DNA of 64,000 bases from Sulfurirhabdus autotrophica (GTDB lineage: Bacteria; Pseudomonadota; Gammaproteobacteria; Burkholderiales; SMCO01): NCBI RefSeq assembly GCF_004346685.1, contig NZ_SMCO01000002.1, forward strand, positions 120,940 through 184,939, read 5' to 3'. Shown here one piece after another: positions 5,653 to 45,676 of the stretch. Made by a program: the position numbers and the translations under genes. Within the stretch, counting starts at the first letter, position 1. The number at the start of each line of letters is the position of its first letter. Under the pieces are notes generated by a model, which saw nothing but the letters and a program-made list of their open reading frames with translations, had not been told where the DNA came from and made no database searches.

Positions 5653-5653
5653 A

Positions 5654-5905: not shown

Positions 5906-5924
5906 CGCTCGCTCCTAAATCGTT

Positions 5925-7511: not shown

Positions 7512-7559
7512 CGCTATTTCATTTCCGTTTTTGGTTGCTCAATCTCTGCCTGTTTCAAA

Positions 7560-9917
7560 TCAACCTCTGGCACCACCGGAGTAAGTTATGGCCGATCCTT
7601 TCGAATCATTACCACTACTTCCGGTAATTCGGCTTACCGGTAACTCTGGACGCTCACGATCTTTCAACTGTGAAGCACCGATTACCGCACCACGCTGCTC
7701 ACCCCTCATTGTGGGGTTACGGCGCGTTGAATTTCCTTCCGTGCCAGTTACACTTTCATTACGTCGCCATGCTGCACCCGTTATCGCAAAACCGCCTTCA
7801 CGACCATCACCTGTCAGTCGGCTACGTGCTTCCTCAACCAACTGAACCTGAGCCATGACTACGGGTGCCGTACTTTCCTGATGGCGGAACTCAGGGGTAC
7901 CAGACACCAGACCCGTTGCCAGATTAACCGGGCCAGTGATACGTCCGATTGCACCGTAAGCAGTGCCTGTGATGTTGCTGATGCTACTATCCTGGGCACT
8001 GCGAGCCGGGGTAGCGATGCTAAAATTTCCTTGCACTCTTTGTTCCTGCGGTGCAGGTGCTGCTTCGCGCGGTACATTTACCGGACGCTGTGTGAGCGGG
8101 TGCGGATTACTGTTTGCACCACGCTGAGACACACGCTGATTGGACCCGGAATAAGGAGTGCCGCTCAAAACCTGGCTTTCGCCACGCCCTGCACCTGTTA
8201 CCTTCCCACCTGATTCAACCCGGGCACCACTCAGAGACAAACTTGCCTGAGCCCCACGACTAGCCATCAAAGCCCGTGAAGCGGCCTGACGATCTGCATC
8301 GCAAAAAGAGGTATATTGATCAGGCCCGATATACTCTGTTCCAGAAATCGGCTGACAACCACCATACTCATCGCCTGTTACCTTACTGCTATGCTCAACT
8401 GGTGTACCGGATACCTGCTGCTCATGCCAGGTGCGCATTACACCAATTTTTTCCGGTGCTGGTGCCGGTTCGCGATTGCAAGCCTGATATTGAGCAAGGC
8501 CATCAGATTCAGTACCGGTCACACTTGCACAAGCACCACGATCACCACCTGTAACCATGCTGCCAGGAGCAACGTCTGTTCCGCTGATTTCGCGATTTTT
8601 AACCGTGCTCATCAAACTAACCTTGTGCGGCGCGCTGCTGCCATTACGACATGCACTGGTGTTCTGGTCCTGAGCGTATTGACTACCGGTAAGCTTACAG
8701 TTGCAGCTACCAGACTCGTCACCCGTTACTTTTGAGCTGCGGCCCACTTCTGTACCGCTCACGTTTAAACCAGCTCGGGTATTGGCTATACCCACTTTTG
8801 ATGGTGTCAGCGCTGGTTTGGTGCCACAGAACGATTCAAACTTGTCAGCACTCAGATACTCAGTACCGGTTACGTTTTTGCATGCACCAAATTCGCTACC
8901 TGTCATCTTTTCGCTACGATCGGTATCAATACCGCTGATGCGCTGGCCTCGGCTGGTATTGCTGATACTTACCTTAGCTGGTGCAGCCTCAGGTGTCGCA
9001 TCACACAACTGCCCATATTGCTCAGCACCAATATATTCAGTACCGGTAATCGCACGACAGCTGCCAGATTCAACACCGGTCACCTTGCTGATGCGCTCAA
9101 CCTGAGTACCGCTCACTGTGGTACCACTCAAAGTAGTACCAATTTCAACTTTGACAGGTGAAACCTGGGTACGTACACGCCCCGTAGGTCGGCAAGCAGG
9201 ATCATTGCCACGACCGTTCTCGCACATTTCTGCGCGGCGTGCTCGTGCAGCATCCCGGCCACTTAAACCCGCAGTTGCCCTTTGGTTTAATTTTCCGGAT
9301 TTAACTGCTTTCTTTCCCTGACTGGATAGTGCGCGGCGGCGCTCCTGACATAATTTGCGTACGGCAGAGGCAACCGAACCAACAACAGCCGTAGGCTCAT
9401 CATCTACAATCGCACATACTTCCTCTATTGCCTGCTCACGCTCAGCCTCTTCCGCCCTGTCTTTGCTTTTGCAACCACACCCTGACTTTTGATCATCCGA
9501 TCCAGCATTCGCGGTTAAAGATGCGGATGCTGACATGGTTGTCGCAGGTGCAGATGTACGAATACTTGATGCCGTTTTAGCTGAACCCAGCGCCGCTTTC
9601 CCACCCAGTGACATGGCTTCACGTCTCGCTCTGGATAATGACTTGCCAGAAGCATTCATCACTGAACCTGAGGTGGCAGCAGATGTTGTTGCAGACAATG
9701 AAGCTGCTGGCGCTGTCTGTGCCGGACGTGCAGTCTCAACGGTTGAAGTTATCGGTGCTGCTGTTGACATTGCTGGCCTGGTTGCTGGACGTGCAGGTGC
9801 GGATGGTTTTGCACCAATCGCGGTGCGTCCGTTCTGGGACAGCGCACGGCGCCTTTCCAGTGCAACAGCGCGTGACGAACGCGGAGTCGTTGTATTGTTT
9901 GCCATTGGATCGCTCAT
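7560..9917 (-). CDS. csoS2: Carboxysome scaffold protein CsoS2.
   Basis: 785 aa, intrinsically repetitive. N-terminal RRRALS-type repeats are followed by many VSGT/ISGT...KVTG(D/V)E(S/Y)G(S/G)C repeats with paired cysteines. A GGAGGA ribosome-binding site precedes the ATG. Confidence 0.85.
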   Translation of the reverse strand: MSDPMANNTTTPRSSRAVALERRRALSQNGRTAIGAKPSAPARPATRPAMSTAAPITSTVETARPAQTAPAASLSATTSAATSGSVMNASGKSLSRARREAMSLGGKAALGSAKTASSIRTSAPATTMSASASLTANAGSDDQKSGCGCKSKDRAEEAEREQAIEEVCAIVDDEPTAVVGSVASAVRKLCQERRRALSSQGKKAVKSGKLNQRATAGLSGRDAARARRAEMCENGRGNDPACRPTGRVRTQVSPVKVEIGTTLSGTTVSGTQVERISKVTGVESGSCRAITGTEYIGAEQYGQLCDATPEAAPAKVSISNTSRGQRISGIDTDRSEKMTGSEFGACKNVTGTEYLSADKFESFCGTKPALTPSKVGIANTRAGLNVSGTEVGRSSKVTGDESGSCNCKLTGSQYAQDQNTSACRNGSSAPHKVSLMSTVKNREISGTDVAPGSMVTGGDRGACASVTGTESDGLAQYQACNREPAPAPEKIGVMRTWHEQQVSGTPVEHSSKVTGDEYGGCQPISGTEYIGPDQYTSFCDADRQAASRALMASRGAQASLSLSGARVESGGKVTGAGRGESQVLSGTPYSGSNQRVSQRGANSNPHPLTQRPVNVPREAAPAPQEQRVQGNFSIATPARSAQDSSISNITGTAYGAIGRITGPVNLATGLVSGTPEFRHQESTAPVVMAQVQLVEEARSRLTGDGREGGFAITGAAWRRNESVTGTEGNSTRRNPTMRGEQRGAVIGASQLKDRERPELPVSRITGSSGNDSKGSAITYSGGARG

Positions 9918-10109
9918 GCTCTCATCCTCCCGTATTCACTCAATCCTTGCACTGGCCGAACTAGCGGGCGGCGCAAGAAGCATATATGGATAAATCCTGT
10001 TTCTTTCGGTGCTTGACTACAACTTGCCTCACCCCAAACCAAGGTACTATCACGGTATTCTTTAACCGCTATACCCCTTGATTTGGTTGCGAATGCAATT
10101 TAAAGCTAA

Positions 10110-10442
10110 TTACTTTCCACGGAACACAACAAATGATGTGCCCTGGCTTTGCGAGTAATTGTCATATCCGATCAATCGCACATGGTTACCAGGGTGCGCA
10201 CGGTGACAGGCTTCCAGCTCGGCTATAATCACATCAACTGACTGCTCGCCGAACATTGGCAACTTCCACATATACCAGTAGTAAGCACTAGCCCGTGCAG
10301 GTTCAACGTGCTCTATCCCCGGATTCCATCCCTGACTTACCAGATAAGCAATCTGACGACGGATTTTTTCCGGGGTCATTGGAGGCAAATACGAAAATGT
10401 TTCGTATTTAGGTGTGGATTTGAAATCTTGAATATCAGCCAT
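10110..10442 (-). CDS. cbbS: Rubisco small subunit.
   Basis: 110 aa ([48 protein letters not shown]...), immediately downstream of cbbL. Confidence 0.95.
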
Positions 10443-10531
10443 TTCTTTTTCCTTTCATTTTTGGGCGGCGGTGCTCTTCAACCCCTGTCCCGCACCTGTT
10501 TTCGTTTTAGCCTTTTGATTTATCGCTTAAA

Positions 10532-11953
10532 TTAGCGGTTAACCACGTCCAGCTTGTCCACGGTATCGAACTCGAACTTGATCTCTTTCCATGTTTCCAT
10601 AGCGATCTTCAATTCCGGGCTATCCTTGGCTGCATTGGTAAGAATCTCTTTACCTTCACGTTCCAGTTCACGACCTTCGTTACGCGCTTCAACACATGCT
10701 TCCAGCGCAACACGGTTAGCAGCCGCACCTGCAGCGTTACCCCATGGGTGACCTAAAGTACCGCCACCGAATTGCAACACTGAATCATCACCAAAGATGT
10801 TTACCAGTGCCGGCATGTGCCATACGTGAATACCACCAGAAGCGACCGGGAATACACCTGGCATGGAACCCCAATCCTGGTCAAACATAATGCCGCGTGA
10901 ACGGTCTTCAGGAATAAATGACTCGCGCATCAAATCAATCCAGCCCAGCGTTGCTTCACGGTCACCTTCCAATTTACCAACAACGGTACCTGAGTGCAGG
11001 TGATCACCACCGGACAGACGCAGAATCTTGGTCAAGACGCGGAAGTGAATACCGTGGTGCGGGTTACGATCCAGCACGGCATGCATAGCGCGGTGAATGT
11101 GCAACAACATACCGTTCTTGCGACACCAGTTCGCCAGACTGGTATTAGCGGTAAAGCCACCCGTAATGTAATCGTGCATGATAATTGGAGCGCCGATTTC
11201 CTTGGCAAATTCAGCACGTTCAATCATGTCTTCATAAGTTGGCGCCGTTACGTTCAGGTAGTGACCTTTACGCTCGCCAGTTTCTGCCTGAGCAGTCAAC
11301 GTTGCATCCTGCACGAACAGGAAGCGATCACGCCAGCGCATGAATGGCTGACTGTTGATGTTCTCGTCGTCCTTGGTGAAATCCAGACCACCACGCAAAC
11401 ATTCGTATACAGCACGACCGTAGTTTTTAGCAGACAAACCGAGTTTTGGCTTGATGGTACAACCCAACATCGGACGGCCATACTTGTTCATCTTGTCGCG
11501 TTCAACCTGAATACCGTGAGGAGGACCACCGCAGGTCTTCACGTAGTGCAGAGGGAAGCGCACGTCTTCAAGACGCAATGCACGAATTGCTTTAAATCCA
11601 AACACGTTACCCACCAGAGAGGTAAACACGTTAACCACAGAACCTTCTTCAAAAAGGTCGATCGGATAAGCAACAAAGGCATAGAAGCAAGTATCATCGC
11701 CTGGCACGTCTTCAATGCGATAAGCGCGTCCTTTGTAGTAATCCATGTCTGTCAAAAGATCGGTCCAAACTGTGGTCCAGGTACCGGTTGAAGACTCGGC
11801 AGCAACTGCAGCAGCAGCTTCTTCACGGTCTACGCCAGCTTGCGGGGTGATCTTAAAGCAGGCCAGGATGTCCGAATCCAATGGTGCGTACTCTGGCATC
11901 CAGTAGGTCTGTCGATATTCCTTAACACCTGCCTCATACTTTTTTGCGGCCAT
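10532..11953 (-). CDS. cbbL: Rubisco large subunit, form IA.
   Basis: 473 aa with the hallmark [24 protein letters not shown] motif, the active-site lysine region and a C-terminal WKEIKFEF tail. Confidence 0.97.
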
Positions 11954-11986
11954 GTTTGCTCTCCTAAGTGCTATAGTTGAAAAATT

Positions 11987-12209
11987 CTGTTGGAACCGTC
12001 ATTAAGGTTCCGACGGTTGAGCCCATTCTGGAAGAGATGGTTATTTAATAAAAGTTAAATATATTTACTATTACGTTTTACTTTTATTTATTAACTTCAT
12101 CCTTCCACAATCCAACCCTGTACCAACTGTTGGAACCGTCATCTAGTTCCGACGGTTGAGCTTATTGTGAGAGCTCACATTAATTAATAAAAGTTAAATA
12201 TATTTACCG
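11987..12209. promoter_or_regulatory. Two copies (11987-12069 and 12127-12209, period 140 bp) of an approximately 83-bp element in the cbbR-cbbL divergent promoter region. Each copy carries the dyad AACCGTC-N11-GACGGTT (LysR T-N11-A type).
   Basis: Seen directly. Both copies share ctgttggaaccgtcat...gttccgacggttgag...ttaataaaagttaaatatatttac. Copy 2 also contains the perfect inverted repeat TGTGAG-AG-CTCACA. Confidence 0.7.
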
Positions 12210-12238
12210 TAATCATTTATTTTAATTTAATATAAGTT

Positions 12239-13213
12239 ATGCCTATACACCACGCAACGCTGCACCAACTGAAGATTTTCGATGCTGTCGCCAGGCACAT
12301 GAGCTTTGCTCGTGCCGCAGAAGAACTGCACCTGACACCACCAGCACTATCGATTCAGGTCAAGCAATTGGCGGAGGCTATCGGGCAACCACTGTTCGAA
12401 CAGATTGGCAAAAAAATATCGCTCACCGCCGCGGGTCAAGTTTCATGGTCTACCTGCCGGGATGTACTGAGTCGTCTGGATCAACTTGCCCAGGAATTGG
12501 CCTCTCTTCAGGGTCTGGAGAAGGGCAACCTGAAACTGGCTACTCTTGCTACCGCCAAATACTTTATCCCACGGTTGTTAGGGGAGTTCTGTATAAAACA
12601 CCCCGGTGTTGACACTGCCTTGTTTATGGGCAATCGTGAAGCACTACTGGAAAGGCTCGCGCGCAATCAGGACGACCTCTACATTCTGGGCCAACCTCCG
12701 GAACATATGAATGTTATTACGGAACCTTTTGCTGATAATTTTCTGGTCGTAGTTGCCGCCCCAAACCACCCATTAGCGAATGAAAAAAAAATTGATCCAT
12801 CTCGTTTACGAGAAGAGCCATTTATCCTTCGGGAACCAGGATCAGGCACACGCCTTTCTACCGAAAAGTTTTTTGAGCAACATGGCGTGACACTTAAAGT
12901 GCGCATGGAATTAGGAAGCAACGAAGCGGTGAAACAAGTAGCTGCAGGTGGTTTGGGCATAGCGGTACTATCTTCAAGCGCTTTACGCTCCGAGCTTGCA
13001 AATGAGGAGCTTGTGATACTGGACGTCAAGGGTTTCCCGCTGGAACGCAAATGGTATGTGGTTTACCCGATGGGAAAACATCTGACCCCTGCCTCCAGGG
13101 AATTCATGGCATATCTATTTGCTGCTCCACCCACACACCAACTTGACCATAACCAGCTTCATGCAATTTCTGCCAAGCCTGAACACAAGAAAAAACGGCC
13201 GACACCCAAGTGA
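12239..13213 (+). CDS. cbbR: LysR-type transcriptional regulator CbbR.
   Basis: N-terminal LysR helix-turn-helix (LHQLKIFDAVARHMSFARAAEELHLTPPALSIQVKQLAE). Divergent from cbbL. Confidence 0.85.
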   Translation: MPIHHATLHQLKIFDAVARHMSFARAAEELHLTPPALSIQVKQLAEAIGQPLFEQIGKKISLTAAGQVSWSTCRDVLSRLDQLAQELASLQGLEKGNLKLATLATAKYFIPRLLGEFCIKHPGVDTALFMGNREALLERLARNQDDLYILGQPPEHMNVITEPFADNFLVVVAAPNHPLANEKKIDPSRLREEPFILREPGSGTRLSTEKFFEQHGVTLKVRMELGSNEAVKQVAAGGLGIAVLSSSALRSELANEELVILDVKGFPLERKWYVVYPMGKHLTPASREFMAYLFAAPPTHQLDHNQLHAISAKPEHKKKRPTPK

Positions 13214-20432: not shown

Positions 20433-23400
20433 TTATTCAATTTTATTTTTAATAAAATCCATAAATTCACCCAGCGGTAAAGGTTTACTAAACAAAAAAC
20501 CCTGGAAAGCCTGACAACCACGCAACTCAAGAAATTGACACTGCGCTTCATTTTCAACGCCTTCGGCAATCACGTCCAGCCCTAGTGTTTCTGTCATGGC
20601 AATAATTGTCTGCACAATAGTGGCATCGTTAGGGTCGCTGACAATGTCCCGTACAAATGACTGATCAATTTTGATTTGACTCAACGGCAAGCGTTTCAAA
20701 TACTGCAGGGAAGAATAACCTGTTCCAAAATCATCCATGGAAAAACTCACCCCAAGCAATTCTATTTGGTGCATCTTGCTGATGGTTTCCTCAACATTTT
20801 TAAGCATGGCACTTTCAGTCAACTCCAGTTTCAAAAGGGTGGGATTTGCTCCTGTCTCCTGCAGCACGCGCTGTACCTGCCAGACAAAATCAGCCTCATG
20901 AAATTGTTTGGCACTGACATTTACCGCCAGTGTCAGGCTTTTGGCTATCGCATCGTTTTGCCAGTTTGACAGTTGCGCACAAGCTGTTTGAAGCACCCAA
21001 AGTCCAATCGGGATGATGAGGCCGGTTTCTTCGGAAAGGGGGATGAATTGTGCTGGTGAAACCAGACCATACTGAGGATGGTCCCAGCGCAACAATACTT
21101 CTGCTCCCAAGGGGCGACGCAGATTATCCACCTGAATCTGGTAATACAACCGAAATTGCTGCTTGTTTAATGCAAGCCGTAATTCATCTTCCAGTTCCGC
21201 ACGTGTATCGATAGCACGCTGCATGACTGAATCATAGAAACGAATTGCATTGCGACCGCTAATTTTGGCTTGATACATTGCTGTATCCGCATACCTGAGA
21301 AGATCATCGGGAATTTCCTGACGACCACTGAATAGCACAATACCAATGCTCGAAGTGGTATAGCACCTACGTTCATTGAGCATATAAGATTCGCTCAGCG
21401 TGGTGCGTATTTTTTCGGCGACCATTTCTGCTTGCGCTGCTGCTTCATCCACATCTGCACTGAGGGTTTCCAGTACCACGAGAAATTCATCGCCCCCCAG
21501 ACGTGCCACCGTATCACCTTCACGTACGCAAGATTGCACCCTTCTGGCTACATCGATAAGTAGCAGATCACCAATCGCGTGTCCCTTCGTATCGTTGAGG
21601 GTTTTAAAGTTATCCAGGTCGATAAACAGTACTGCCCCATACTGCCCATTGCGAGAACTTGCCGAAAGCGCCTGATTCAAGCGATCCATTAACAGCCGAC
21701 GGTTAGGCAATTGCGTCAGCACATCATAAAATGCCATCTGATGTATTTTGTCTTCGGCATGCTTGAGGTCGGTAACATCGTAAAACCACCCTAATATTGC
21801 CGGCACATTTTCATATTCCAGTTTAAAATAAGAAGCCAGCACCCACGTTTTTTTTGTTTCTGAAACTTTCAATTCCACCAGATTGTTAGTTACCGATTTC
21901 CCTTGCTCAAGTTGTTGTAGAGCATCTTCAAAATCCTGGGGATCCGCGTAATACTGTTTGGGGTCTGTTCCAATCACCTGATCACGTTCAAGCGAGATTA
22001 AATCGGCATATTGCTGGTTTGCAAACAATACGTTATGCCCACCAGAAGCAGCAATTCTTACTGCTATGGGACTGGTTTCAAGCATAAAGCGAAATCTGGC
22101 TCCATTTTTTTGGATTAATTCCTCTGCATGTTTGCGTTCTGTCATGTCATAAAGAATCACCAGACTGGACGTCCCTATCCATGACATACTAAAGCTAATG
22201 TCACGTACCGTGCCATCCTTACACATGACCCGGTATTCCATCGGATCAAACCCACCCCCCTTCTGCTGCATTTTTTCTACCGCCGCATGCCATTCCTGGG
22301 CAACCTGTTGCCGATAAATGGGGTCGGGATAGGCCCGTGGCCACCACGCTTCCAGCGTTGGAATATCTTCCAACGTATATCCAAAGGTATCAACAAATTT
22401 TCTGTTCAATAACGTAATTTTCAAATTTTCGTCATTCATGGCCATTGCCACTGGCGACGATTCGATAATCGCGCGAAAATTTTCCTCACTTGCACGCACC
22501 GCTGCTTCTGCAAGCTTACGTTCGGTAATATCGTTGGCCGATGGTACGAGGAACGCAATCTTGCCTGTCTTGTCACGCACAGGCTGCAAGGAAAAATCAA
22601 TAGAAACCAAATGGTTTCCGGTGCCGCGCACCTGAAAATCATAGCGCGAGACCTCACCCTGAGTTGCGAGTTTAATTGCGGTACGAAGTTTTTGTTGTGT
22701 TTCCTCCAAGCCAGAAAACCAGTAGGTCTGGTCTAAAGGTTTACCCATCACATCAGATAACGCCACCCCTCCCATATCCAATGCCGACTGATTGACCTTA
22801 ATCAGCGTTCCATCCAACTCCATCAGCCCTACGAACGTCGTTGGGCCAAAGCCATCAATCATATTACTCAGCCGCTCTTCACTCTTTCGCAGCTCGGCTT
22901 CAGCAATGTGTCGACCGATGGCGATGCTTGCGATATAAGTGGCGGTATCAATAAATTGCAAATGCTCCTGCCGTGGCAACCCTGGTTGACGATAATACAT
23001 TGCGAAGGTGCCGAGTACCCTCCGTTCCGTATCGAGTATTGGCGTTGACCAACAGGCACGCAACCCATGCGGGAGCGCCGCCTCTTTGTAAGCATCCCAA
23101 AGTGGATCAGTGGCAATATCTTCTACAAACACTGCTTCCTTAAGATAAGCTGCAGTACCACATGACCCTGCGTTCGGGCCTATCGGCTGCCCGTCTACTG
23201 CGGCCACAAATTCAGCTGGCAAACTGGGTGCTGCGCCATGCCGTACATGAACACCATCTTCATCCATCAGCAAAATAGAACCTAACATTCCAGGGGACTG
23301 AGCTTCAATAAGCTGCACTAACGAAGTCAGCGTTTCCGGCAATGCAACGCCCACGGCGATCATCTCTAGCACTTGTTTCTGTCCGTCAAGCAGCGTCTCT

Positions 23401-24230
23401 ACCTGCTTACGCTCAGTAATATCATGCACAATGCCGAGAATCTGGGTGACTTGCCCATATTCATCAAAAACAAAAGGCGTTTCACGACTTACCAGCCAAT
23501 GCCATGCCCCGCCTTTATCCCGAATACGATAATCTATCTCGCGTATGTCACCGCTGGAGGCTTCTTTCCATGCTTCATGGGATGCAATAATACGAGCCAA
23601 ATCTTCTGGATGAAAAATCTGGAGCACATTACTGCCCATGGCCTGTGTCTCTTCAACCGTATAGCCATAGGCAGTAAGCCAATGCTTGTTCAGATAAACA
23701 TTTCGCTGCTCCACCAGATCGTAGATGTAGACAGTGCCCGGCTGAGTATCCAGAATCCGCTCAAGCATAAATTTTTGATCTTGTAGTGCCAACTCAAGTT
23801 TTTTGCGCTGACTGATGTCACGAACACTGGCTATTATGGCAGGTTCGCCATTGTGAACAATTGGATGTGAGAAGATTTCTACCGGCAGTTCACTGCCGTT
23901 TTTGTGTCGGTGCCGCCATTCAAACTTATTCCCCGATTTCAAGGATTCGCTGAGGTGGACATGTACCTCCTTGACCAAATCTTTGGCAGCCAAATCAACT
24001 GCATTCATATTTCTGAAATCATCAAGGCTGTAGCCATAACGGTTTACTGCGGTAGTATTCGCATCCAGAATTTGCCCCTTGAGGCTAAGGATAAAAACAG
24101 CATCAGGGTTTGCATCGAATATCGCCCGATAATCTATGCCATGATAGTCAGAGGTTTTTACATCCATATCAGGTTTATTAAGTATCAGTTCGTTATCGAG
24201 AAACTGCACTGTCATACTGGATAGAAGCAT
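20433..24230 (-). CDS. Multi-PAS/GAF-GGDEF-EAL signalling protein, 1265 aa.
   Basis: Repeated PAS-like blocks (ITERK... repeats), RLGGDEFLVVL, EVLLRW, and DDFGTGYSSLQYL. Confidence 0.9.
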   Translation of the reverse strand: MLLSSMTVQFLDNELILNKPDMDVKTSDYHGIDYRAIFDANPDAVFILSLKGQILDANTTAVNRYGYSLDDFRNMNAVDLAAKDLVKEVHVHLSESLKSGNKFEWRHRHKNGSELPVEIFSHPIVHNGEPAIIASVRDISQRKKLELALQDQKFMLERILDTQPGTVYIYDLVEQRNVYLNKHWLTAYGYTVEETQAMGSNVLQIFHPEDLARIIASHEAWKEASSGDIREIDYRIRDKGGAWHWLVSRETPFVFDEYGQVTQILGIVHDITERKQVETLLDGQKQVLEMIAVGVALPETLTSLVQLIEAQSPGMLGSILLMDEDGVHVRHGAAPSLPAEFVAAVDGQPIGPNAGSCGTAAYLKEAVFVEDIATDPLWDAYKEAALPHGLRACWSTPILDTERRVLGTFAMYYRQPGLPRQEHLQFIDTATYIASIAIGRHIAEAELRKSEERLSNMIDGFGPTTFVGLMELDGTLIKVNQSALDMGGVALSDVMGKPLDQTYWFSGLEETQQKLRTAIKLATQGEVSRYDFQVRGTGNHLVSIDFSLQPVRDKTGKIAFLVPSANDITERKLAEAAVRASEENFRAIIESSPVAMAMNDENLKITLLNRKFVDTFGYTLEDIPTLEAWWPRAYPDPIYRQQVAQEWHAAVEKMQQKGGGFDPMEYRVMCKDGTVRDISFSMSWIGTSSLVILYDMTERKHAEELIQKNGARFRFMLETSPIAVRIAASGGHNVLFANQQYADLISLERDQVIGTDPKQYYADPQDFEDALQQLEQGKSVTNNLVELKVSETKKTWVLASYFKLEYENVPAILGWFYDVTDLKHAEDKIHQMAFYDVLTQLPNRRLLMDRLNQALSASSRNGQYGAVLFIDLDNFKTLNDTKGHAIGDLLLIDVARRVQSCVREGDTVARLGGDEFLVVLETLSADVDEAAAQAEMVAEKIRTTLSESYMLNERRCYTTSSIGIVLFSGRQEIPDDLLRYADTAMYQAKISGRNAIRFYDSVMQRAIDTRAELEDELRLALNKQQFRLYYQIQVDNLRRPLGAEVLLRWDHPQYGLVSPAQFIPLSEETGLIIPIGLWVLQTACAQLSNWQNDAIAKSLTLAVNVSAKQFHEADFVWQVQRVLQETGANPTLLKLELTESAMLKNVEETISKMHQIELLGVSFSMDDFGTGYSSLQYLKRLPLSQIKIDQSFVRDIVSDPNDATIVQTIIAMTETLGLDVIAEGVENEAQCQFLELRGCQAFQGFLFSKPLPLGEFMDFIKNKIE

Positions 24231-24399: not shown

Positions 24400-27300
24400 T
24401 TAAGAAGCCGCTCTCGTTGGACGCAAGGGATCAGCCCCAATGGTGCCACGGAGGCTTTGCAGATACGCACCTGTCTTCACTTTTTCAAGCCTGGCTTTGG
24501 CCCGCATCAATCGGTCATGAATCTCCAGCCTGATCACCATATCCTGGTGACTAGGGCGACTGACAAAAGCTTCAAGGTTATGAATATGGCGCTGCCACAA
24601 AGTTACATCCCTAGCCTGCTTTGTCTCCAGGCGCTCCAGATACCAATCCGAGGCCAGCAGTGCTTCACGAGTAAACATGGCGCGAATGGCTGGATCATGC
24701 ACGTCTTTCCCCTCGTAACTGCCGTTTGCCATGATGTGCAGCAGCGCTTTGATAGGCGGGCAGGCATCTTCTATGCTGCCATCTTCCAGATAAGATGCGC
24801 CCACTTTTTGCTGCGCTTCTACAATATTTTCCACTCCATCTACAAAAACAGCCAAATCCTGTGTTTCCGGGCGGAGAATGCTTTCACCGAATACCGACAT
24901 AGGCGCATCAAAAATCTTGCCTAAATATCCATGTACAAAACGTTCTGTGATGCGATAACCCAGACGACTTGCTTGAACTGATCGCCCCTCATACTGGATA
25001 TCTGCCACTTTTTCCATATAGCCGTTTTCAATCAGAAAGTGAGGATCGCGATCCTGAGCAGATAGGCGCGACCATATTTCAGGTACCAGTAAACTGACAT
25101 CATGATCCACACGGAATTTAGATCCAATATAGCCTGCCGCTGTGGAAAAACCCGAATAACCCGTAAGAATAAATGAAACCAGCGCGTTATTCAGATCGAC
25201 AGTCGGCCGGAGTGCATTAAATGGTCCTTTCGTTAGCGCGCCTTCACTCCCTGCGCCTGTGGTGGAGGGCGATTTCCCGGTCAAACTGCAAATAAAATCC
25301 ATGAACAGTTCGGGCAACTCCTGATAATGAATCGGGTTGTACACGGCTAATGGACGAATACCAGGTTCAGCCGGGTTATTACGTCGGCCGACCAGTACTG
25401 CGTTAACAGGTTCAATAACAGCAACTTCCAAAGGTAGTCGCCGACTCAGTCGCGCCCCCACTTCTGCCACATAGCGGCGAACCGGATGCGATAAATCAGG
25501 ACGCAATTGGAGATAACGTGGGTTTTTGCTTGGCTTTCCATCCACTATCCTCGGATGAGCTGATGACACCACATATTCGTCTGACTCTGAAGCTTCACGC
25601 AAGATTGTTCGCATAGGTTCTGTATATTGGCCAAAACCCACAACATCTTCCATTATTTCGGACAGAGCTTCGCCCTTCAGCGGCTCAAAGTTGGCAATAA
25701 AGTTATCACGCTGAGCTATATCCAGTTCAGTCTGGCGATCTAATCCGCGGTGCACTGCTTCGTCAGGCCGCTGGAACAAACGGTACTCGCAATTACTGAC
25801 CAATTTAACACTGGCATCCGCACTTTTTGGGGATACATTCGAAAGCACTTCAGCAGGTACGACAACCGATGCGGTAATGTCGTCTTCTTTCTGCACTTTT
25901 TCTGCCGCAATAAAATCCTGACGCATTTTGAAAACTCGCCATGCGCCATTTTCCTCAAAGCCCATCCGTAAATAAGAGCCCACCAACTTACGTTCACCCA
26001 GTTTGAGTTCATGACCAGGCTGGCCATTTACAAAATCAACAGACAAGCGTTGACGCCAGCTATCACCCCAGTCCGGGCTGTACATGCGCTTGATAATAAA
26101 AACCAGCGCCAGAATGCGATCTGGCACACTTTCCAGCCAGTTGTTAAAAGCGTCTGTATAGGAGGGGGAAGGGGTGAGTACTTTAATAACAGAACCCAAA
26201 CTCCGTTCCGAACTCAGTAATTTACGGCTCGCATCCCTGTCTTCACGTTCAAAACCTGGTTTAAAGCGGTCACCATAGTGACGTTGAAAAATCGCTTCCA
26301 CCTGATCCAGATCTTTATCCAGATCCGCGACAAACAGCGGTCCATATATAACCGCATCATTGAGTGATTTGGAAATCTCTGATTTACCACCTCCGGAAAC
26401 AGTGCAAGGCTTATGACAAAACACGCCTTCTGCATCCGTACCCACCAGACGCCAGGATGGTGCCCCCGGATGTTTCTGCATTTCTATTTTGTAGCCATTT
26501 GGCTGCATGTAAATTTTGCCGGGACGCAGTTTTATTGTTTGCTTAACGCCTGATTTCATCCACGAAATCGTTTGTCCGGCGAGATCCATGCGCAAATCCT
26601 GAGGCACATAAATCACATCCGGAAACTGTTTGTCTACCCCATAGCCCTCGGGCTGCAATGTCATCAACTCGCCATACTGCGCTACCATATCGTCAAAGTC
26701 ATAGCCAGGTGCACGGGTGTGACTATCCACCCCGAATTCCTCACCATGATTTCGCCGAGGGAAGGCCAAAGCGCCTCCCGCGTGTTCTTCTTCAGCCAGG
26801 CCAAATAAATTTGTGGCATAACTGATCTGTGTTTTGACTTCTTTTTTGCAATAGCCGTAATAATTATCTGCCAGCAGGGTCACAATCACGCCTCGCTCAT
26901 CTCTGGCTGTGATCTTGAACGCAGCGCCATCGTTATAACGTTCACTTTCGTCTTTCCAGCACATGCCATCTACCTGTTGGCGTGGCGTTGCTTTATCCCA
27001 TGCTGGCAAGCCCAGTTCTTTCTTGGTAAATCTCGTCAGATGGGGGGCCAGAATCACACACCCGCTGTGACCTGACCAATGGTCTGCATCCAGCCCGGCA
27101 TCATTGGAGGAAAGATAAGGATTACCCCCGTTTCCGAAAATGCTTTCTACAAAATCCAGATTGCTTACCAGGCTGCCTGGCGCAAAAAACCGAATTTCCA
27201 TATTTTTTTCTGATTCACTGCCTGGAATTTCCGGACAAATCACCGGACGCAGCAAGAGTGACACAAACATACTCGCTTCATGGGGTTGCCCGGATGTAAA

Positions 27301-27867
27301 CGGCAATTTCATATAACTCGGTGGTGGTGTTAAGGCCTTCCGCAATAAATTCGCAAACGTTAGCTTAGGAACGGCCTTCTTGTCGCCGGGGATAGGTAAC
27401 CCGCCTTCCGCAACATGGAAAGAACCCTTGGTAGTGCGACGGTCGCTTGCTGGATTATGCAACACCCCATTTCGAATACGGTAGCTACTGACATACTCAC
27501 TGCTGAACACATCTTTATCAATGGGTAGTGAAAGCTCTCTGGATACGCCGTGTCGATCGAGAATCAAAGTATCTTCAGGCAACCGGGGGATATCTCCACC
27601 TGCAACATCAGAGAGATAGCTATTCAGAAAATCCTGAATACGCTGATCCGGCGGACACAGATAGCCGCTCAACAAACGGGATTTTTCGCGATAACTTCTT
27701 AACAGATCTTGTGCAACGGCCATGAAATCGCCATCACTTCCCTGCAAGCAGGCGGGCTGGCCAGAGGATTCAAGTTTCAGATTAATGTAGAGCTGCAGGC
27801 GTTCGCGCGTTTCTTGTACATCTTCCGGGCTTCCATTGAGCCCAAGAAATTGATTCAAATCCTTCAT
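24400..27867 (-). CDS. Large cytoplasmic protein of unknown function, 1155 aa. Speculatively a PPi-dependent phosphoenolpyruvate carboxykinase, based on size class only.
   Basis: Single uninterrupted ORF with a good ribosome-binding site and no transmembrane segment or signal peptide. It contains a GGGKSE P-loop-like segment. The family assignment is not secure. Confidence 0.55.
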   Translation of the reverse strand: MKDLNQFLGLNGSPEDVQETRERLQLYINLKLESSGQPACLQGSDGDFMAVAQDLLRSYREKSRLLSGYLCPPDQRIQDFLNSYLSDVAGGDIPRLPEDTLILDRHGVSRELSLPIDKDVFSSEYVSSYRIRNGVLHNPASDRRTTKGSFHVAEGGLPIPGDKKAVPKLTFANLLRKALTPPPSYMKLPFTSGQPHEASMFVSLLLRPVICPEIPGSESEKNMEIRFFAPGSLVSNLDFVESIFGNGGNPYLSSNDAGLDADHWSGHSGCVILAPHLTRFTKKELGLPAWDKATPRQQVDGMCWKDESERYNDGAAFKITARDERGVIVTLLADNYYGYCKKEVKTQISYATNLFGLAEEEHAGGALAFPRRNHGEEFGVDSHTRAPGYDFDDMVAQYGELMTLQPEGYGVDKQFPDVIYVPQDLRMDLAGQTISWMKSGVKQTIKLRPGKIYMQPNGYKIEMQKHPGAPSWRLVGTDAEGVFCHKPCTVSGGGKSEISKSLNDAVIYGPLFVADLDKDLDQVEAIFQRHYGDRFKPGFEREDRDASRKLLSSERSLGSVIKVLTPSPSYTDAFNNWLESVPDRILALVFIIKRMYSPDWGDSWRQRLSVDFVNGQPGHELKLGERKLVGSYLRMGFEENGAWRVFKMRQDFIAAEKVQKEDDITASVVVPAEVLSNVSPKSADASVKLVSNCEYRLFQRPDEAVHRGLDRQTELDIAQRDNFIANFEPLKGEALSEIMEDVVGFGQYTEPMRTILREASESDEYVVSSAHPRIVDGKPSKNPRYLQLRPDLSHPVRRYVAEVGARLSRRLPLEVAVIEPVNAVLVGRRNNPAEPGIRPLAVYNPIHYQELPELFMDFICSLTGKSPSTTGAGSEGALTKGPFNALRPTVDLNNALVSFILTGYSGFSTAAGYIGSKFRVDHDVSLLVPEIWSRLSAQDRDPHFLIENGYMEKVADIQYEGRSVQASRLGYRITERFVHGYLGKIFDAPMSVFGESILRPETQDLAVFVDGVENIVEAQQKVGASYLEDGSIEDACPPIKALLHIMANGSYEGKDVHDPAIRAMFTREALLASDWYLERLETKQARDVTLWQRHIHNLEAFVSRPSHQDMVIRLEIHDRLMRAKARLEKVKTGAYLQSLRGTIGADPLRPTRAAS

Positions 27868-27998
27868 AACTTTCTCTACCCCAAACTTAATCCTTGAAAC
27901 CGATTTTACGGTTAATCCCGCATCCCGGGAAAAAGGTTATTCTAACCCGAAAAAACCACAATCATGGGTTTGAACGGAATTTATAAATAGCACCCGCC

Positions 27999-28686: not shown

Positions 28687-29394
28687 TTAATGCAAGGTAC
28701 GCGACTGGCCACAACATTGTTTGTACTTTTTACCACTTCCGCAAGGACAGGTATCATTGCGGCCCACTTTAGGGGTATCTCGCTTGACCGGGCTATGCTT
28801 GCGCTGAGCCAGCCAATAGTTGTAAATTTTAAATACGCTATCCGGCAGCACTGCCATACATTCCAGCACCAGTTTTTCGTATTCATCAGGTGGCATAAAC
28901 TCCTCTCCCCTGTTTTCTGCATCCTCCTTGAACGCACCAGATAAAAGCAAAATGGGAAATGTCAGTTTTTTTAACGGCTCGTTACCCGGCGTCATCCATT
29001 CCTGTTTAGAAAGTGACCAACCTAAAATATAACCATCACACCAGGATTGATAGCTGTCTCGTTCATCTCCCTGACTTTCAGCTTTCAGCATAAGGTTCAA
29101 ATGCTGTCCGTCATCCATGAACTGGGATACCACATGATTGTAAAACCCCATCAACAGCCCCATAAACTCATTAATCTGGGCTTCTGATTCAATAGTTGGC
29201 TTGGTTCCAAGCACTTCTGCTATCCAGCGACTGGCTGGAATAACATCTGGCGAACTGACAACAGCACATAGCAAGCCTTGTAATTTATCCAAAGGCATCG
29301 CTTTACCCTTGAAGACCGGGGATACCAGCCATGTTTCCAATTGTTTTATTTGTTCTTCTGTCATAGGGCCTGTTGCCTGCATGTGTGAATTCAT
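28687..29394 (-). CDS. YecA-family protein (UPF0149 domain plus C-terminal SEC-C metal-binding motif).
   Basis: C-terminal [24 protein letters not shown] motif with a UPF0149-like N-terminal region. Confidence 0.75.
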
Positions 29395-33102: not shown

Positions 33103-34329
33103 TCACCCCTTTACACAAACTACTTGCTTTAAGGTGTGAACAATTTCGACTAAATCCGCCTGTGCAGCCATCACCTGTTCGATGGGTTTGTAAGCAGAGG
33201 GGGTTTCATCTATAACATCTTTGTCTTTACGACATTCCACGCCTTCCGTCGCTTTAATATGTTCAGCCAACGTAACTTGGCGTTTGGCTTCAGTTCTTGA
33301 CATCACGCGCCCCGCACCGTGGCTGCAACTACAGAAACTTTCCTCATTCCCAAGTCCGCGTACGATGAAAGATCGCGCCCCCATGCTGCCCGGAATAATT
33401 CCCATCTCGCCCTTGCGCGCGCTTACGGCCCCCTTACGCGTTACCCAGACATTTTCACCATAATGACTTTCACGACTGATGTAGTTATGGTGGCAATTCA
33501 CCGCTTCAACATCAGCTTCAAATTTCACATTCATGACTTCGCGCATGGCGCTTAATGTGTTCAACATCATCACCTCCCGATTTGCGCGAGCGAAATCCTG
33601 TGCCCATGCAACTGCTTCGATATAGTGGCGAAAATTCTCACTCCCTTCGGGTATGTAAGCCAAATCTTTATCCGGCAAGTGAATGAACCATCGCTCCATA
33701 TCCTTTTTGGCTTGCTCAATAAAGTACGTACCAATACGGTTACCTACTCCGCGTGAACCACTATGCAACATCACCCACACTGCATCTGCTTCATCCAGAC
33801 AAATTTCTACAAAGTGATTCCCTGTACCCAACGTCCCTAAATGATTCAAGTTGTTCGTGTTCTTCAAAAAAGGATGCTTTTCACACAAATGCTCAAACCC
33901 GGCATGTAAGGGCGCCCATGCTTGCAACACTTCTTCTGGCGCTTTACCCCAGCTACCTGTATCACGTACACCACGATGTTGAATCGAGCGTCCATGCGGT
34001 ACTCGCTTCTCAATTTCCGCACGCATTGCACTTAACGAATCTGGCAACTGTGCAGCAGTAAGTGATGTTTTTGCCGCCATCATGCCGCACCCAAGGTCCA
34101 CACCTACGGCCGCCGGAATTACTGCGCCAATTGTCGGTATCACGCTACCAATTGTCGCGCCCTTACCAACGTGCACATCTGGCATGGCAGCGATCCATTT
34201 ATGAATAAATGGCATCTGGGCAATGTTGCGCAGCTGCTGCTTGGCGTTATCGTCAAATTGCACACCTCTTGTCCATGATTTAACTGGATGTTGGCCTTCG
34301 GCACTTAAAACTTCGTATGGTGTATTCAT
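33103..34329 (-). CDS. rtcB: RNA-splicing ligase RtcB.
   Basis: Conserved CHHNY, GSMGARS and SHGAGR motifs. The probable start is the internal Met at 34329 (AAAGGAA ribosome-binding site). The long ORF starts at 34359. Confidence 0.85.
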   Translation of the reverse strand: MNTPYEVLSAEGQHPVKSWTRGVQFDDNAKQQLRNIAQMPFIHKWIAAMPDVHVGKGATIGSVIPTIGAVIPAAVGVDLGCGMMAAKTSLTAAQLPDSLSAMRAEIEKRVPHGRSIQHRGVRDTGSWGKAPEEVLQAWAPLHAGFEHLCEKHPFLKNTNNLNHLGTLGTGNHFVEICLDEADAVWVMLHSGSRGVGNRIGTYFIEQAKKDMERWFIHLPDKDLAYIPEGSENFRHYIEAVAWAQDFARANREVMMLNTLSAMREVMNVKFEADVEAVNCHHNYISRESHYGENVWVTRKGAVSARKGEMGIIPGSMGARSFIVRGLGNEESFCSCSHGAGRVMSRTEAKRQVTLAEHIKATEGVECRKDKDVIDETPSAYKPIEQVMAAQADLVEIVHTLKQVVCVKG

Positions 34330-34371
34330 ATTTATTCCTTTCAACTTATTGTTATTCACAGTTATCAGATA

Positions 34372-34387
34372 GCAATTGCTGTGCCAG
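34372..34387 (-). promoter_or_regulatory. Sigma-54 (-24/-12) promoter driving rtcB. Minus-strand sequence is TGGCAC-AGCAA-TTGCT.
   Basis: Exact match to the consensus TGGCAC-N5-TTGCW, about 12-45 nt upstream of the rtcB start. Divergent from the sigma-54 activator gene rtcR. Confidence 0.7.
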
Positions 34388-34522
34388 AAATAATTAATTT
34401 CAGCATAATATTTTTATCCAATTGTAAATAAACAAATAATTCACACTATTAAACAAATAATAAATTGGCGCGATAAATTTAATATACAATAAATCTATCT
34501 TACAAGATAAGTTGCTATCTAA

Positions 34523-36121
34523 ATGAATACAACGATAATCGGCATTTTGGGTTCCAGGCTAGATCATGGCGGCCTTGGCAGAAACAGAACGAAACGGTGG
34601 CGTCCAAATGTTTCGCTGCTCATGCATGCAGAACTGCCCGTTAATGAGTTTGTGTTGATCCATCACCCGGAAGAGGCTGCACTTGCCGAGATCACCATGC
34701 GCGACATGCGCGAAATATCTCCGCAAACAAGTGTCATCCCTTATCTGGTTAATTACAGTGATCCATGGGATTTTGAGGAGGTATACAGTCAGCTATTGGA
34801 TTTCACACGCAGCTATTCATTTGACCCTGAACAAAGTGATTATTATGTCCATATCACTACGGGAACACATGTAGCCCAAATCTGTTTGTATTTATTGACT
34901 GAGGCAAGATACATACCCGGCAAACTGCTGCAAACTTCCCCAGGCGAAGAAGGGCCAAAGGGGCAATACCAGATCATTGATCTTGATCTTTCGCGATACG
35001 ATCAGATTGCATCACGTTTTGAGCGTGAGGCCATGGATGGCATCACCTATCTGAAAAGCGGAATAGAAACACACAACACAGCATTCAATGCATTAATTTC
35101 ACAACTGGAACATGTATCTATCCGATCCTCCGCGCCCATCCTGCTTACCGGACCAACCGGAGCAGGCAAGTCACGCCTTGCAAAACGCATTTATGATCTG
35201 AAGAAACAGCGTGGGCAAATAAAGGGTAAATTGGTTGAGGTTAACTGTGCCACTTTGCGGGGCGACAATGCAATGTCTGCCCTTTTTGGCCATGTAAAAG
35301 GCGCATTCACCGGTGCGCTTAACACCCGCGCCGGGTTGTTACGGGAAGCAGACAACGGCTTGCTGTTTCTGGATGAAATTGGCGAACTCGGCCTAGACGA
35401 GCAGGCAATGCTGCTCAGGGCAATTGAAGACAAGATTTTTATGCCATTTGGCGCAGATATTGAAGTAAGCAGTAATTTTCAGTTAATCGCAGGAACCAAC
35501 AGAGATTTATTCGAGCAAGTTCGTCTGGGACTTTTTCGCGAAGATCTATTGGCACGTATTAACCTGTGGACTTATGAGCTACCTTCCCTAAGAAACAGAA
35601 TAGAAGATCTGGAACCAAACATAGAACACGAGTTGCACCAATTCACCATTAAAGCCGGACACAAAGTGAATTTTAATAAAGGTGCGCGTGAAAACTATCT
35701 GGAATTTGCTCGCTCACCGCAAGCAATGTGGCGGGCAAATTTCCGCGATCTCAATTCCAGCATTACCCGCATGGCCACTTTGGCAACCGGAGGCAGGATT
35801 ACGGAAGAAATTGTAGAAGGTGAGATTTTGCGCCTACAAAAAGGGTGGTCCGGATTTTCAGATAAGCAACCATTCTCAACTGAAATACTCAGTGAAATTT
35901 TACCATCAGAAACATTAACCGAAATTGATTTGTTTGATCAAATTCAACTGACGCAAGTCATCAATATATGCAGAGAAAGCCGGAGTCTTGCAGAAGCAGG
36001 TCGTAAATTATTTAATCGCAGCCGCACACAAAAATCCAGCATCAATGACTCACATCGGTTAAAGCAATACTTAATACGTTTTGGCCTGGAGTTCCAAGGA
36101 GTAATCACCAGGCAATCCTAA
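34523..36121 (+). CDS. rtcR: RtcR, a sigma-54-dependent activator with an N-terminal CARF-like sensing domain.
   Basis: 532 aa. AAA+ sigma-54 interaction core (GPTGAGKS, GAFTGA) with a non-receiver N-terminal domain. Divergent from rtcB. Confidence 0.8.
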   Translation: MNTTIIGILGSRLDHGGLGRNRTKRWRPNVSLLMHAELPVNEFVLIHHPEEAALAEITMRDMREISPQTSVIPYLVNYSDPWDFEEVYSQLLDFTRSYSFDPEQSDYYVHITTGTHVAQICLYLLTEARYIPGKLLQTSPGEEGPKGQYQIIDLDLSRYDQIASRFEREAMDGITYLKSGIETHNTAFNALISQLEHVSIRSSAPILLTGPTGAGKSRLAKRIYDLKKQRGQIKGKLVEVNCATLRGDNAMSALFGHVKGAFTGALNTRAGLLREADNGLLFLDEIGELGLDEQAMLLRAIEDKIFMPFGADIEVSSNFQLIAGTNRDLFEQVRLGLFREDLLARINLWTYELPSLRNRIEDLEPNIEHELHQFTIKAGHKVNFNKGARENYLEFARSPQAMWRANFRDLNSSITRMATLATGGRITEEIVEGEILRLQKGWSGFSDKQPFSTEILSEILPSETLTEIDLFDQIQLTQVINICRESRSLAEAGRKLFNRSRTQKSSINDSHRLKQYLIRFGLEFQGVITRQS

Positions 36122-44134: not shown

Positions 44135-45436
44135 TTAAGGCACCTCATGATCAATCATGATTCTTAACGATTCCGAACCGACTTTAACAGGCTTGCTATA
44201 TCCTTCCAGATCCCCGCTTTGCGGTGCCGCAGATCCGGATTTTGATAAGCGAGCGACTACCTGCACTTGCTCAAAACTGGAAAGCTTCATTTTGGACGTC
44301 ATCGCCATATCATCTGTTAATTGAAATTTCAAGGGAAGTGCTCCCCCTGTTTTACTAAGAATAGCCAAAGGCATTCTTGAACCGTTGGCAGCGCGGGCAA
44401 ACACAAATAACTTGGCATCCGTAACTAACTTAGCCTTCAACGCTGGCGCAATCTCCACTACGCCGCTCACTTTCCCCACCACGCCTGCTTGCTGAGTTGA
44501 TACGTTGGATGGTTGATCCGGGACCAGCCCCTTCATTTCCGATTGCAGTTGCATTGCTGCTGCCTTGTCACCTGTTCGCGCTTTCGCATCCAGAATACTT
44601 AGCGTTATTTCTTTGTTGGATTCTTTACCCGGTGGTAGCAATGCGTACAGCTTTTCCCAATATTTAACAGCATTTTTATAATCACGCCGGTTGTACGATG
44701 CTGTGCCTGCAAGGTACAGCGCTTTTTCATTTTCGGGGTGAATTTTCAAAGCTTGTTGCACCAGTGCTTCTGGTTTTCCTTCCAGACTGCGGCCTTGAGC
44801 CATTGCCAACGCATCCGCATAATCTGCCAATAATGTTGCATCGTTATTAACCAGTTTTGTGGCACGTTCAAAAGCCTTCACTGCTTCGGGATATTGCTTG
44901 AGCATCACATAAGAACGACTTAGCATTACCCAGCTCTCGGTATCATCCGGCACTCGGTTTAACCTGTCTTTCAGGCGTTCAACAAAACCAATGACCGAAG
45001 CTTGCATCTGATCTGCTGCCGGGCGTTCTGTTTGTTCAGCAGCCATAACGGGGGCTTGCACTGTTCTTTGCTTATCTATTGACTGTGGAGATCCAAGCTT
45101 CACATAAAGCGCAATTGCTATCCCGGGTAACAGCAACAAGAACGTAATGGCTACAGCATAATTAAAATGCGATTTCGCAACTATTGATTTTTGCGATACC
45201 GAAACATCTTCCATCATGCGCTGCTCAAGTTCACTTTTTGCTTCGTCATAATGCTCCATACTGAGTGTCCTATTGGCTAAATCGTGCTCTAGCTCATTCA
45301 TTTGTTCCCGATAAAGCGACACGTTCAACTGCTTCTGCTCAACGCCGCTTAACGGTTTTTTAGATAACAAGGGTGGTATTAGAAATGCAAGAACAGACAC
45401 CATCATCAACCCGGATATTATCCAAAAAATCACCAT
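44135..45436 (-). CDS. TPR-repeat membrane protein, CcmI/CycH-like cytochrome c biogenesis factor.
   Basis: N-terminal transmembrane helix, coiled-coil, a second transmembrane helix, then TPR repeats (AYEKALYLAGTASYNRRDYKNAVKYWEK). Confidence 0.5.
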   Translation of the reverse strand: MVIFWIISGLMMVSVLAFLIPPLLSKKPLSGVEQKQLNVSLYREQMNELEHDLANRTLSMEHYDEAKSELEQRMMEDVSVSQKSIVAKSHFNYAVAITFLLLLPGIAIALYVKLGSPQSIDKQRTVQAPVMAAEQTERPAADQMQASVIGFVERLKDRLNRVPDDTESWVMLSRSYVMLKQYPEAVKAFERATKLVNNDATLLADYADALAMAQGRSLEGKPEALVQQALKIHPENEKALYLAGTASYNRRDYKNAVKYWEKLYALLPPGKESNKEITLSILDAKARTGDKAAAMQLQSEMKGLVPDQPSNVSTQQAGVVGKVSGVVEIAPALKAKLVTDAKLFVFARAANGSRMPLAILSKTGGALPLKFQLTDDMAMTSKMKLSSFEQVQVVARLSKSGSAAPQSGDLEGYSKPVKVGSESLRIMIDHEVP

Positions 45437-45676
45437 AATTGCATTCCGGATACAATATAAAAAAACGAACTCTCAACAAGTGTGCTTTCTTAATGCCAAG
45501 TGCAATTAGTACCGGGAAAATCCCAAATAAACACGCACTAATTTCAAATTAAAAAACATCTGCTACCTCCCTTATTTCGGATGTTCTCCCGAACAATACG
45601 AATATAAGGAAGCGAGCAAATTACATGTTTTTAAACAATATCATCCAATACTATAATTTTAATTTTGCGATGAGTA

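Follow-up and report, generated by a model that had tools for sequence, protein, structure and literature searches.

A probable pyrophosphate-type phosphoenolpyruvate carboxykinase in the chemolithoautotrophic sulfur oxidiser Sulfurirhabdus autotrophica

A 64,000-nucleotide stretch of the Sulfurirhabdus autotrophica genome (contig NZ_SMCO01000002.1, positions 120,940 to 184,939; hereafter the window) encodes an 1155-residue protein that belongs, by sequence, motifs and fold, to the inorganic pyrophosphate (PPi)-dependent phosphoenolpyruvate carboxykinases, and we regard it as very likely to be a functional PPi-type phosphoenolpyruvate carboxykinase (PEPCK), also called phosphoenolpyruvate (PEP) carboxytransphosphorylase (EC 4.1.1.38). 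An earlier note on this DNA, made from the sequence without database searches, had guessed at this enzyme, and full-length matches with E = 0 to the enzymes of Propionibacterium freudenreichii and Actinomyces israelii, together with a matching fold, bear the guess out. By homology, the enzyme would reversibly interconvert PEP + CO2 + inorganic phosphate (Pi) and oxaloacetate + PPi, using a PEPCK-type catalytic core with divalent metals that would be enlarged by family-specific extra domains. Sulfurirhabdus lies within the Sulfuricellaceae, Nitrosomonadales, and its only described species is, according to an excerpt of PMC6397845, a chemolithoautotrophic sulfur oxidiser. The PEPCK is an ordinary member of the PPi-type family, which is itself already known.

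Sequence searches lead to this family and to no other. A phmmer search against every PDB chain returned 6k31 (AiPEPCK of A. israelii; E = 0, 1201 bits, query residues 28-1147) and 8e1u (PPi-dependent PEPCK of P. freudenreichii; E = 0, 1195 bits, query residues 21-1147) and no further significant match, and a profile of 24 diverse homologs searched against the PDB recovered the same two entries (1543 and 1526 bits, respectively) and nothing else. Counted from the reassembled printed alignments, the protein is identical to 6k31 at 51.8% of 1111 aligned positions and to 8e1u at 49.7% of 1113. The 24-sequence family alignment has 281 invariant columns, of which 6k31 keeps 254 and 8e1u 249. The P. 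freudenreichii enzyme, with which the earlier note had proposed a comparison, is colinear over its full length (query 21-1147 to chain 6-1128), similar in size (1131 versus 1155 aa) and carries all the conserved motifs, although about half of the residues differ; the PDB describes 8e1u as a malate complex. Compared with AiPEPCK, the protein has small indels in two regions, 375-420 and 745-760. Both reference enzymes come from organisms unlike the present host: P. freudenreichii is a fermentative actinobacterium in which the enzyme feeds the Wood-Werkman cycle, whereas S. autotrophica is an aerobic chemolithoautotroph, and A. israelii likewise belongs to another phylum and has another lifestyle.

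Family libraries were less informative. As the earlier note had stated, no signature of a common large enzyme is present: local Pfam-A and NCBIfam (release 20) returned 0 families for the protein at E<=1, and Pfam gave no match with its models for ATP- or GTP-dependent PEPCK (PF01293 and PF00821). Two control homologs that carry a precomputed PF26300.1 assignment (P0001 and P0052) were also matchless in the local Pfam library, so the blank reflects a library gap and not novelty. Among the homologs listed, 120/120 carry precomputed PF26300.1, lengths range over 1144-1192 aa, and the 1155-aa query fits the family size of about 1100-1200 aa. Several of these homologs bear the UniRef name 'PPi-type phosphoenolpyruvate carboxykinase', and the NCBI source names shown are mostly 'hypothetical protein'. 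Two other large enzymes were considered and rejected, the large bacterial NAD-glutamate dehydrogenase (Bac_GDH), which the earlier note had named as a possible refuting outcome, and PEP carboxylase (PEPcase): neither has a Pfam or NCBIfam match in the protein, and the PDB sequence and fold searches yield PEPCKs only.

Structure prediction, another check proposed in the earlier note, points the same way. An AlphaFold (AF2) model computed from close homologs plus representatives at 32-64% identity has a mean predicted local distance difference test (pLDDT) score of 89.1 and a predicted template-modelling (pTM) score of 0.88; a run with 30 close homologs only (68-95% identity) gave pLDDT 55.6, pTM 0.33 and a template-modelling (TM) score of 0.20 to 8e1u, and was discarded. 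In a Foldseek search of the PDB, the confident model superposes on the two PPi-PEPCKs at TM 0.90-0.96, with TMq 0.91-0.94, TMt 0.94-0.96 and a root-mean-square deviation (rmsd) of 2.1-2.9 Å for the 8e1u chains, and TM 0.90/0.94 for 6k31 (rmsd across both entries 2.1-3.1 Å). ATP-dependent PEPCKs follow (T. thermophilus, E. coli, A. succinogenes and T. cruzi; E ~1e-9 to 1e-7, TMt 0.56-0.67, 8-10% identity), and GTP-dependent PEPCKs come after them (E ~1e-4).

The nucleotide-dependent enzymes (EC 4.1.1.49 and 4.1.1.32; for example, E. coli Pck 1aq2, T. thermophilus 1j3b and rat cPEPCK) thus share a core fold with the model (Foldseek E 1e-9 to 1e-4, TM 0.5-0.67 when normalised to the smaller enzyme) and, as a weak likeness, P-loop-like GK[ST] and Tyr/Lys-Lys elements in the same order. 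At the level of sequence no homology to them can be detected (hhalign probability of 1.1-1.2% against E. coli Pck, 8-10% identity); the PPi-type protein is twice their size with extra domains and, by analogy with its characterised relatives, would use PPi and not a nucleotide as phosphoryl donor.

Every motif of the family is present in the protein. The patterns xRTT, YxGYxKK, EEH, [TS]VSGxGK[ST]E, DDI, FQRPD and NxR[YF] occur in every full-length member down to 32% identity; the protein has RTT, YxGYxKK, EEH, VSGGGKSE, DDI, FQRPD and NPRY, as well as GKSPSTTGAG, and all of these are conserved in the 40 members compared and in both PDB enzymes. The GGGKSE segment pointed out in the earlier note lies at residues 492-497 inside the P-loop-like motif TVSGGGKSEISKS, which is identical in 6k31 and 8e1u and in which V490, S491, G492, G494, K495, E497 and K500 are strictly invariant among 40 family members, down to 32% identity. 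Within the block at residues 336-362, conservation is complete or exceeds 90% at Y336, Y339, K341, K342, K345, E360, E361 and H362. R144, T145 and T146 of the RRTT motif are at least 90% conserved across the family and present in 6k31 and 8e1u, and R700, D702, N782 and R784 are also strictly invariant in the alignment that reaches down to 32% identity.

Roles for these residues can be proposed from the nucleotide-dependent enzymes. An hhalign comparison of the family profile with E. coli Pck places TVSGGGKSEISKS on the kinase-1a loop FGLSGTGKTTLS at a probability of 1.2%, a correspondence that is only a lead. Local alignment of residues 326-375 with E. coli Pck lands on Y207/K212/K213 and is not significant (58/500 shuffles), and a Smith-Waterman alignment of the second motif segment lands on the P-loop and is likewise not significant (164/500 shuffles). 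From this analogy, the 336-362 block may be the counterpart of the Tyr, Lys-Lys and His metal- and substrate-binding elements of ATP-PEPCK, the EDD motif may correspond to its Asp-Asp metal ligands, and RRTT would have a putative role in substrate binding. The candidate active site would then comprise K341, K342, H362 and D662-D663 as putative metal ligands, S491, K495 and S496 as a putative phosphate loop, and R144 and R784 as putative substrate arginines.

The gene itself is intact. The earlier note had reported a single intact open reading frame (ORF), and the frame is indeed uninterrupted for 1155 codons; its strand is corrected here to minus, as reading 24400-27867 on the plus strand meets dozens of stops. 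Chance cannot account for an open frame of this length, because (61/64)^1155 is about 1e-24. Its ATG start codon (27867-27865, minus strand) is right, because homologs of 1151-1160 aa span the whole query (100% query coverage). The predicted product has a mass of 129 kDa and an acidic isoelectric point of 5.9. Its N-terminus, MKDLNQFLGLNGSPEDVQETRER, is polar and acidic, which argues against a signal peptide, and the highest Kyte-Doolittle 19-residue window reaches 1.21 (usual transmembrane threshold, about 1.6). From its sequence the protein therefore looks soluble, with neither a transmembrane segment nor a signal peptide, as the earlier note had it.

Comparison with relatives shows that the gene is under strong purifying selection. 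No contig on record encodes an identical protein; the best match, 95% identical, is in a metagenome-assembled genome (MAG) of Sulfurirhabdus sp. (locus L011), which is syntenic with the window from rtcR to cbbL and has a CbbL that is 99.6% identical. The two PEPCK genes differ by 347 synonymous and 63 nonsynonymous codon differences, distributed over codon positions 1, 2 and 3 as 64, 28 and 360, so that about 31% of third positions differ. Orthologs are 79-81% identical in Sulfuricella, 65-70% in Sedimenticola, Thiocapsa, tubeworm endosymbionts and Methylococcaceae, and about 58% in Planctomycetota, Verrucomicrobiota and Bacteroidota. Those of the other autotrophs and the methanotrophs (65-81% identity) have the same length and are stand-alone genes, as here, whereas their neighbourhoods differ in every lineage; none has been purified biochemically in the literature searched. 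The methanotroph enzyme of Methylotuvimicrobium alcaliphilum (WP_014148666) is already on published metabolic maps (PMC6860931, PMC10602362). A word-indexed search found more than 8000 family sequences at E<=1e-10, and 2712 representatives in a 50%-identity library match at E<=1e-3. Fragments make up most of the best 150 among them, with only about 20 full-length clusters, which argues for a compact, slowly evolving family.

The 131 bp between the PEPCK gene and its upstream neighbour contain a conserved element. Over the 87 nt that precede the ATG, the window and L011 differ by one indel and are otherwise identical, and the leader is far more conserved than the synonymous sites of the same pair. 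In 10 Sulfuricellaceae-type loci, a TTTC.GG.TA.AAT core with a -10-like TAGAAT or TAAAAT is invariant, and a T-rich/GCGGGA stretch accompanies it. Scans for sigma70 promoters and terminators gave nothing above shuffled expectation; the consensus promoter scan missed the element, which has a poor -35. The upstream motif has no significant repeats elsewhere in the window, Rfam gave no match, and no tandem repeats were found. A conserved 5-bp hairpin at 27930-27916 was rejected: covariation does not support it (76% paired versus 74% in shuffles). Hairpins flanking the gene are not significant (z about -0.7). The ribosome-binding site claimed in the earlier note survives as a purine-rich Shine-Dalgarno-like stretch before the ATG, although as a weak match only. 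The conserved -10-like element is probably a promoter or an operator, and its conservation suggests that the PEPCK gene has its own promoter. Positions of these and of the main features of the gene are collected in Table 1.

Table 1. Positions of the PEPCK gene, its motifs, its upstream elements and the carboxysome operon in the window.
Feature	Position	Strand	Basis or remark
PPi-dependent PEPCK coding sequence (very likely)	24400..27867	minus	1155 aa + TAA stop (24402-24400); ORF, PDB matches, fold, codon differences
RRTT motif, residues 143-146	27430..27441	minus	Family conservation
YYGYCKKEVKT ... EEEH block, residues 336-362	26782..26862	minus	Family conservation
P-loop-like motif TVSGGGKSEISKS, residues 489-501 (holds GGGKSE, 492-497)	26365..26403	minus	Family conservation
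EDD motif, residues 661-663	25879..25887	minus	D662 and D663 strictly invariant (40-member alignment)
GRRNNP (827-832) and GKSPSTTGAGSEGALTKGPFN (864-884) blocks	25216..25389	minus	Invariant in 24 diverse full-length sequences, 6k31 and 8e1u
Intergenic region upstream of PEPCK, 131 bp	27868..27998	minus	Shine-Dalgarno-like and -10-like elements
Shine-Dalgarno-like stretch GGGGTAGAGAAAG	27882-27870	minus	Purine-rich, weak match
Conserved -10-like element TTTCGGGTTAGAAT	27952-27939	minus	Sulfuricellaceae-type comparison
Alpha-carboxysome operon, complete	2097-11953	minus	Divergent LysR-type cbbR; region to 13213

The earlier note had placed the gene close to the carboxysome locus. That locus is real and complete, with genes for cbbL, cbbS, csoS2, csoSCA, csoS4A, csoS4B, two csoS1, a ferritin-like protein, a 92-aa unknown, a ParA/McdA-like protein, a 75-aa unknown and cbbQ, but closeness is the part of the claim that does not hold up well, as 12.4 kb separate the PEPCK gene from cbbL. 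The interval holds six genes that are unrelated and use both strands (for a sigma54 response regulator, a protein of 185 aa with no assigned identity, a histidine kinase, a DUF2721 protein and two PAS-GGDEF-EAL proteins), and upstream of the PEPCK gene come a DUF480 gene and then a UPF0149/SEC-C gene. A functional coupling of the PEPCK to the carboxysome or CO2-concentrating locus, for example as a co-regulated second CO2-fixing step using the concentrated inorganic carbon, would draw on this arrangement, which recurs at the same relative position in L011, and on the use of CO2 and not bicarbonate by PEPCKs as given in a table of PMC10880623. We consider such coupling very unlikely in view of the intervening genes, the gene's own conserved upstream element, and the wider comparison: among 80 loci with PEPCK orthologs no neighbour is conserved across taxa, sharing being confined to single lineages, and in the 79 loci other than L011, Sulfuricella included, the ±10 kb around the ortholog contain no cbb or cso gene. 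Because proximity is conserved within the genus only, it is no evidence of a functional link. The protein is also colinear with 6k31 and 8e1u and has no encapsulation-type extension relative to the heterotroph homologs. The 64-kb window holds no other central-carbon or PPi genes, and the PEPCK gene appears to be a stand-alone unit.

Even less probable is that this family member lacks catalytic activity or has diverged to another chemistry, be it a change of phosphoryl donor or acceptor or a reaction that is not that of a PEPCK. Few members of the family have ever been characterised (those of Propionibacterium, Entamoeba and Actinomyces), but the protein retains every strictly invariant family residue and motif, its fold superposes on 8e1u at an rmsd of 2.1 Å, and both the purifying selection on the gene and the compact, slowly evolving nature of its family argue against a change of function. 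The direction of the reaction is a closer question. We lean towards the PEPCK running mainly in the carboxylating (anaplerotic) direction, in which it would convert Calvin-cycle PEP, formed from 3-phosphoglycerate, to oxaloacetate for biosynthesis and save the PEP phosphoryl-bond energy as PPi; PEP carboxylase loses that energy. This direction is the more sensible one because an obligate Calvin-cycle autotroph gets its PEP from 3-phosphoglycerate and needs C3 carboxylation for oxaloacetate. S. autotrophica has '-' in the last two growth columns of a strain-table excerpt without column headers (PMC6397845); we take these columns to be heterotrophic and anaerobic growth and S. autotrophica to be obligately autotrophic, and if they are read so, it does not have to form its PEP from C4 acids. 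For the reaction oxaloacetate + PPi -> PEP + Pi + CO2, ΔG'm is +3.9 ± 6.2 kJ/mol (PMC8100219), which puts the reaction close to equilibrium, with a slight bias towards carboxylation. A kinetic preference of PPi-PEPCK for carboxylation is reported as well (McLeod & Holyoak 2021, 2023, as cited in PMC12547629). The P. shermanii enzyme depends on Mg2+, Mn2+ or Co2+, and malate, sulfate and PPi inhibit it (PMC8100219); malate may also inhibit the present enzyme, as it does that of P. freudenreichii.

The same enzyme might instead work in the decarboxylating (cataplerotic or gluconeogenic) direction, forming PEP + CO2 + Pi from oxaloacetate and biosynthetic PPi as a free donor, for example in the use of storage compounds or in balancing the tricarboxylic acid cycle. 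Near-equilibrium energetics would allow this, and Entamoeba, which is without other PEPCK types, relies on its PPi-PEPCK (PMC8100219), but we think it doubtful in S. autotrophica, since a genus that is obligately autotrophic (on the above reading of the PMC6397845 excerpt) and makes PEP from 3-phosphoglycerate has no obvious use for a C4-to-C3 route, cannot dispense with an anaplerotic C3 carboxylase, and would be running the enzyme against the kinetic preference reported through PMC12547629. Several points nonetheless weigh against a PPi-PEPCK working anaplerotically. An identity of about 50% to the characterised enzymes formally leaves both the phosphoryl donor and the physiological direction unfixed, and no neighbouring gene backs a particular pathway role. 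Extracts of M. alcaliphilum 20Z, moreover, made PEP from malate, an activity credited to malate dehydrogenase plus PPi-PEPCK, so that the homolog there apparently ran cataplerotically from malate through oxaloacetate to PEP (PMC6860931).

With the carboxylating direction, a broader and more tentative reading can be entertained, in which PPi-PEPCK is the main or sole anaplerotic carboxylase of carboxysome-bearing Calvin-cycle sulfur oxidisers (Sulfuricellaceae, Gallionellaceae, Thiobacillaceae, Sedimenticola, Chromatiaceae and tubeworm symbionts) and forms, with PPi-dependent phosphofructokinase (PPi-PFK) and H+-pyrophosphatase (H+-PPase), a general module that conserves PPi and so makes autotrophic biosynthesis cheaper in ATP. 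We hold this to be possible rather than probable. Energy saving by PPi-PFK and H+-PPase has been proposed for chemoautotrophic, Calvin-cycle sulfur oxidisers (PMC4287430), and a CO2-fixing, PPi-generating anaplerotic step would fit that proposal. If the broader reading is true, genome reconstructions would have missed the PEP-oxaloacetate node owing to 'hypothetical protein' names, which all but one of the NCBI names shown for the homologs are. Taken alone, the S. autotrophica protein is an unremarkable ortholog of an enzyme already known, and the value of its assignment lies in annotation: with no NCBIfam model and mostly 'hypothetical protein' names, the PEP-oxaloacetate link is easily missed in reconstructions of autotrophs. 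A 2020 review found PPi-PEPCK without an InterPro family (PMC8100219), and one methanotroph paper puzzles over missing C3 carboxylases (PMC8527097).

Several further observations concern the surroundings of the PEPCK gene. Directly downstream, on the minus strand at 20433-24230, lies a gene for a 1265-aa multi-PAS/GAF-GGDEF-EAL protein; it is absent from the otherwise syntenic L011, in which a 564-aa GGDEF-EAL gene adjoins PEPCK, and is a strain-level insertion or deletion. The UPF0149/SEC-C (YecA-like) gene at 28687-29394 is the sole PEPCK neighbour that recurs outside the genus: in five Sulfuricella loci (L002, L003, L004, L006 and L046) it is divergent from PEPCK and directly adjoins it, whereas in the window it is co-oriented with PEPCK and the DUF480 gene stands between. 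The carboxysome region (2097-13213) has a GC content of about 50-51%, against mostly 42-48% in the rest of the window.

Among more distant relatives, a gene of the phosphofructokinase (PFK) family (about 464 aa) lies upstream of the PPi-PEPCK match and ends no more than about 140 bp from it, with a median of about 36 bp, in five loci (L066:8577-9971, L068:8571-9965, L071:4-1320, L072:8461-9858 and L079:8583-9977), four of them labelled Verrucomicrobiota or uncultured bacterium and one, L072, Bifidobacteriaceae. The PFK in these loci has GGDGT, with Gly at '104', yet PKTIDND, with Lys at '124', so its phosphoryl donor is ambiguous; the pair may form a PPi-linked glycolytic/PEPCK operon.

Elsewhere in the window, 33103-36121 holds an RNA-repair module of an RtcB RNA ligase gene on the minus strand and a divergent gene on the plus strand for its sigma54-dependent regulator, RtcR. 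A cluster at 44135-54814 encodes a CcmH/CycH-like protein, a 392-aa cytochrome c, a 681-aa protein with a weak MtrC/MtrF-like multihaem domain and a 621-aa, possibly SoxB-like protein that carries a 5'-nucleotidase C-terminal domain, followed on the opposite strand by a gene for a 983-aa PQQ/beta-propeller repeat protein; the cluster may serve electron transfer in the periplasm or outside the cell. Four ORFs without a Pfam match (512, 236, 198 and 191 aa) occupy a GC-rich (52%), AT-skewed segment at 57442-61003, just upstream of type II secretion system genes (T2SS G/F, 61770-63407).

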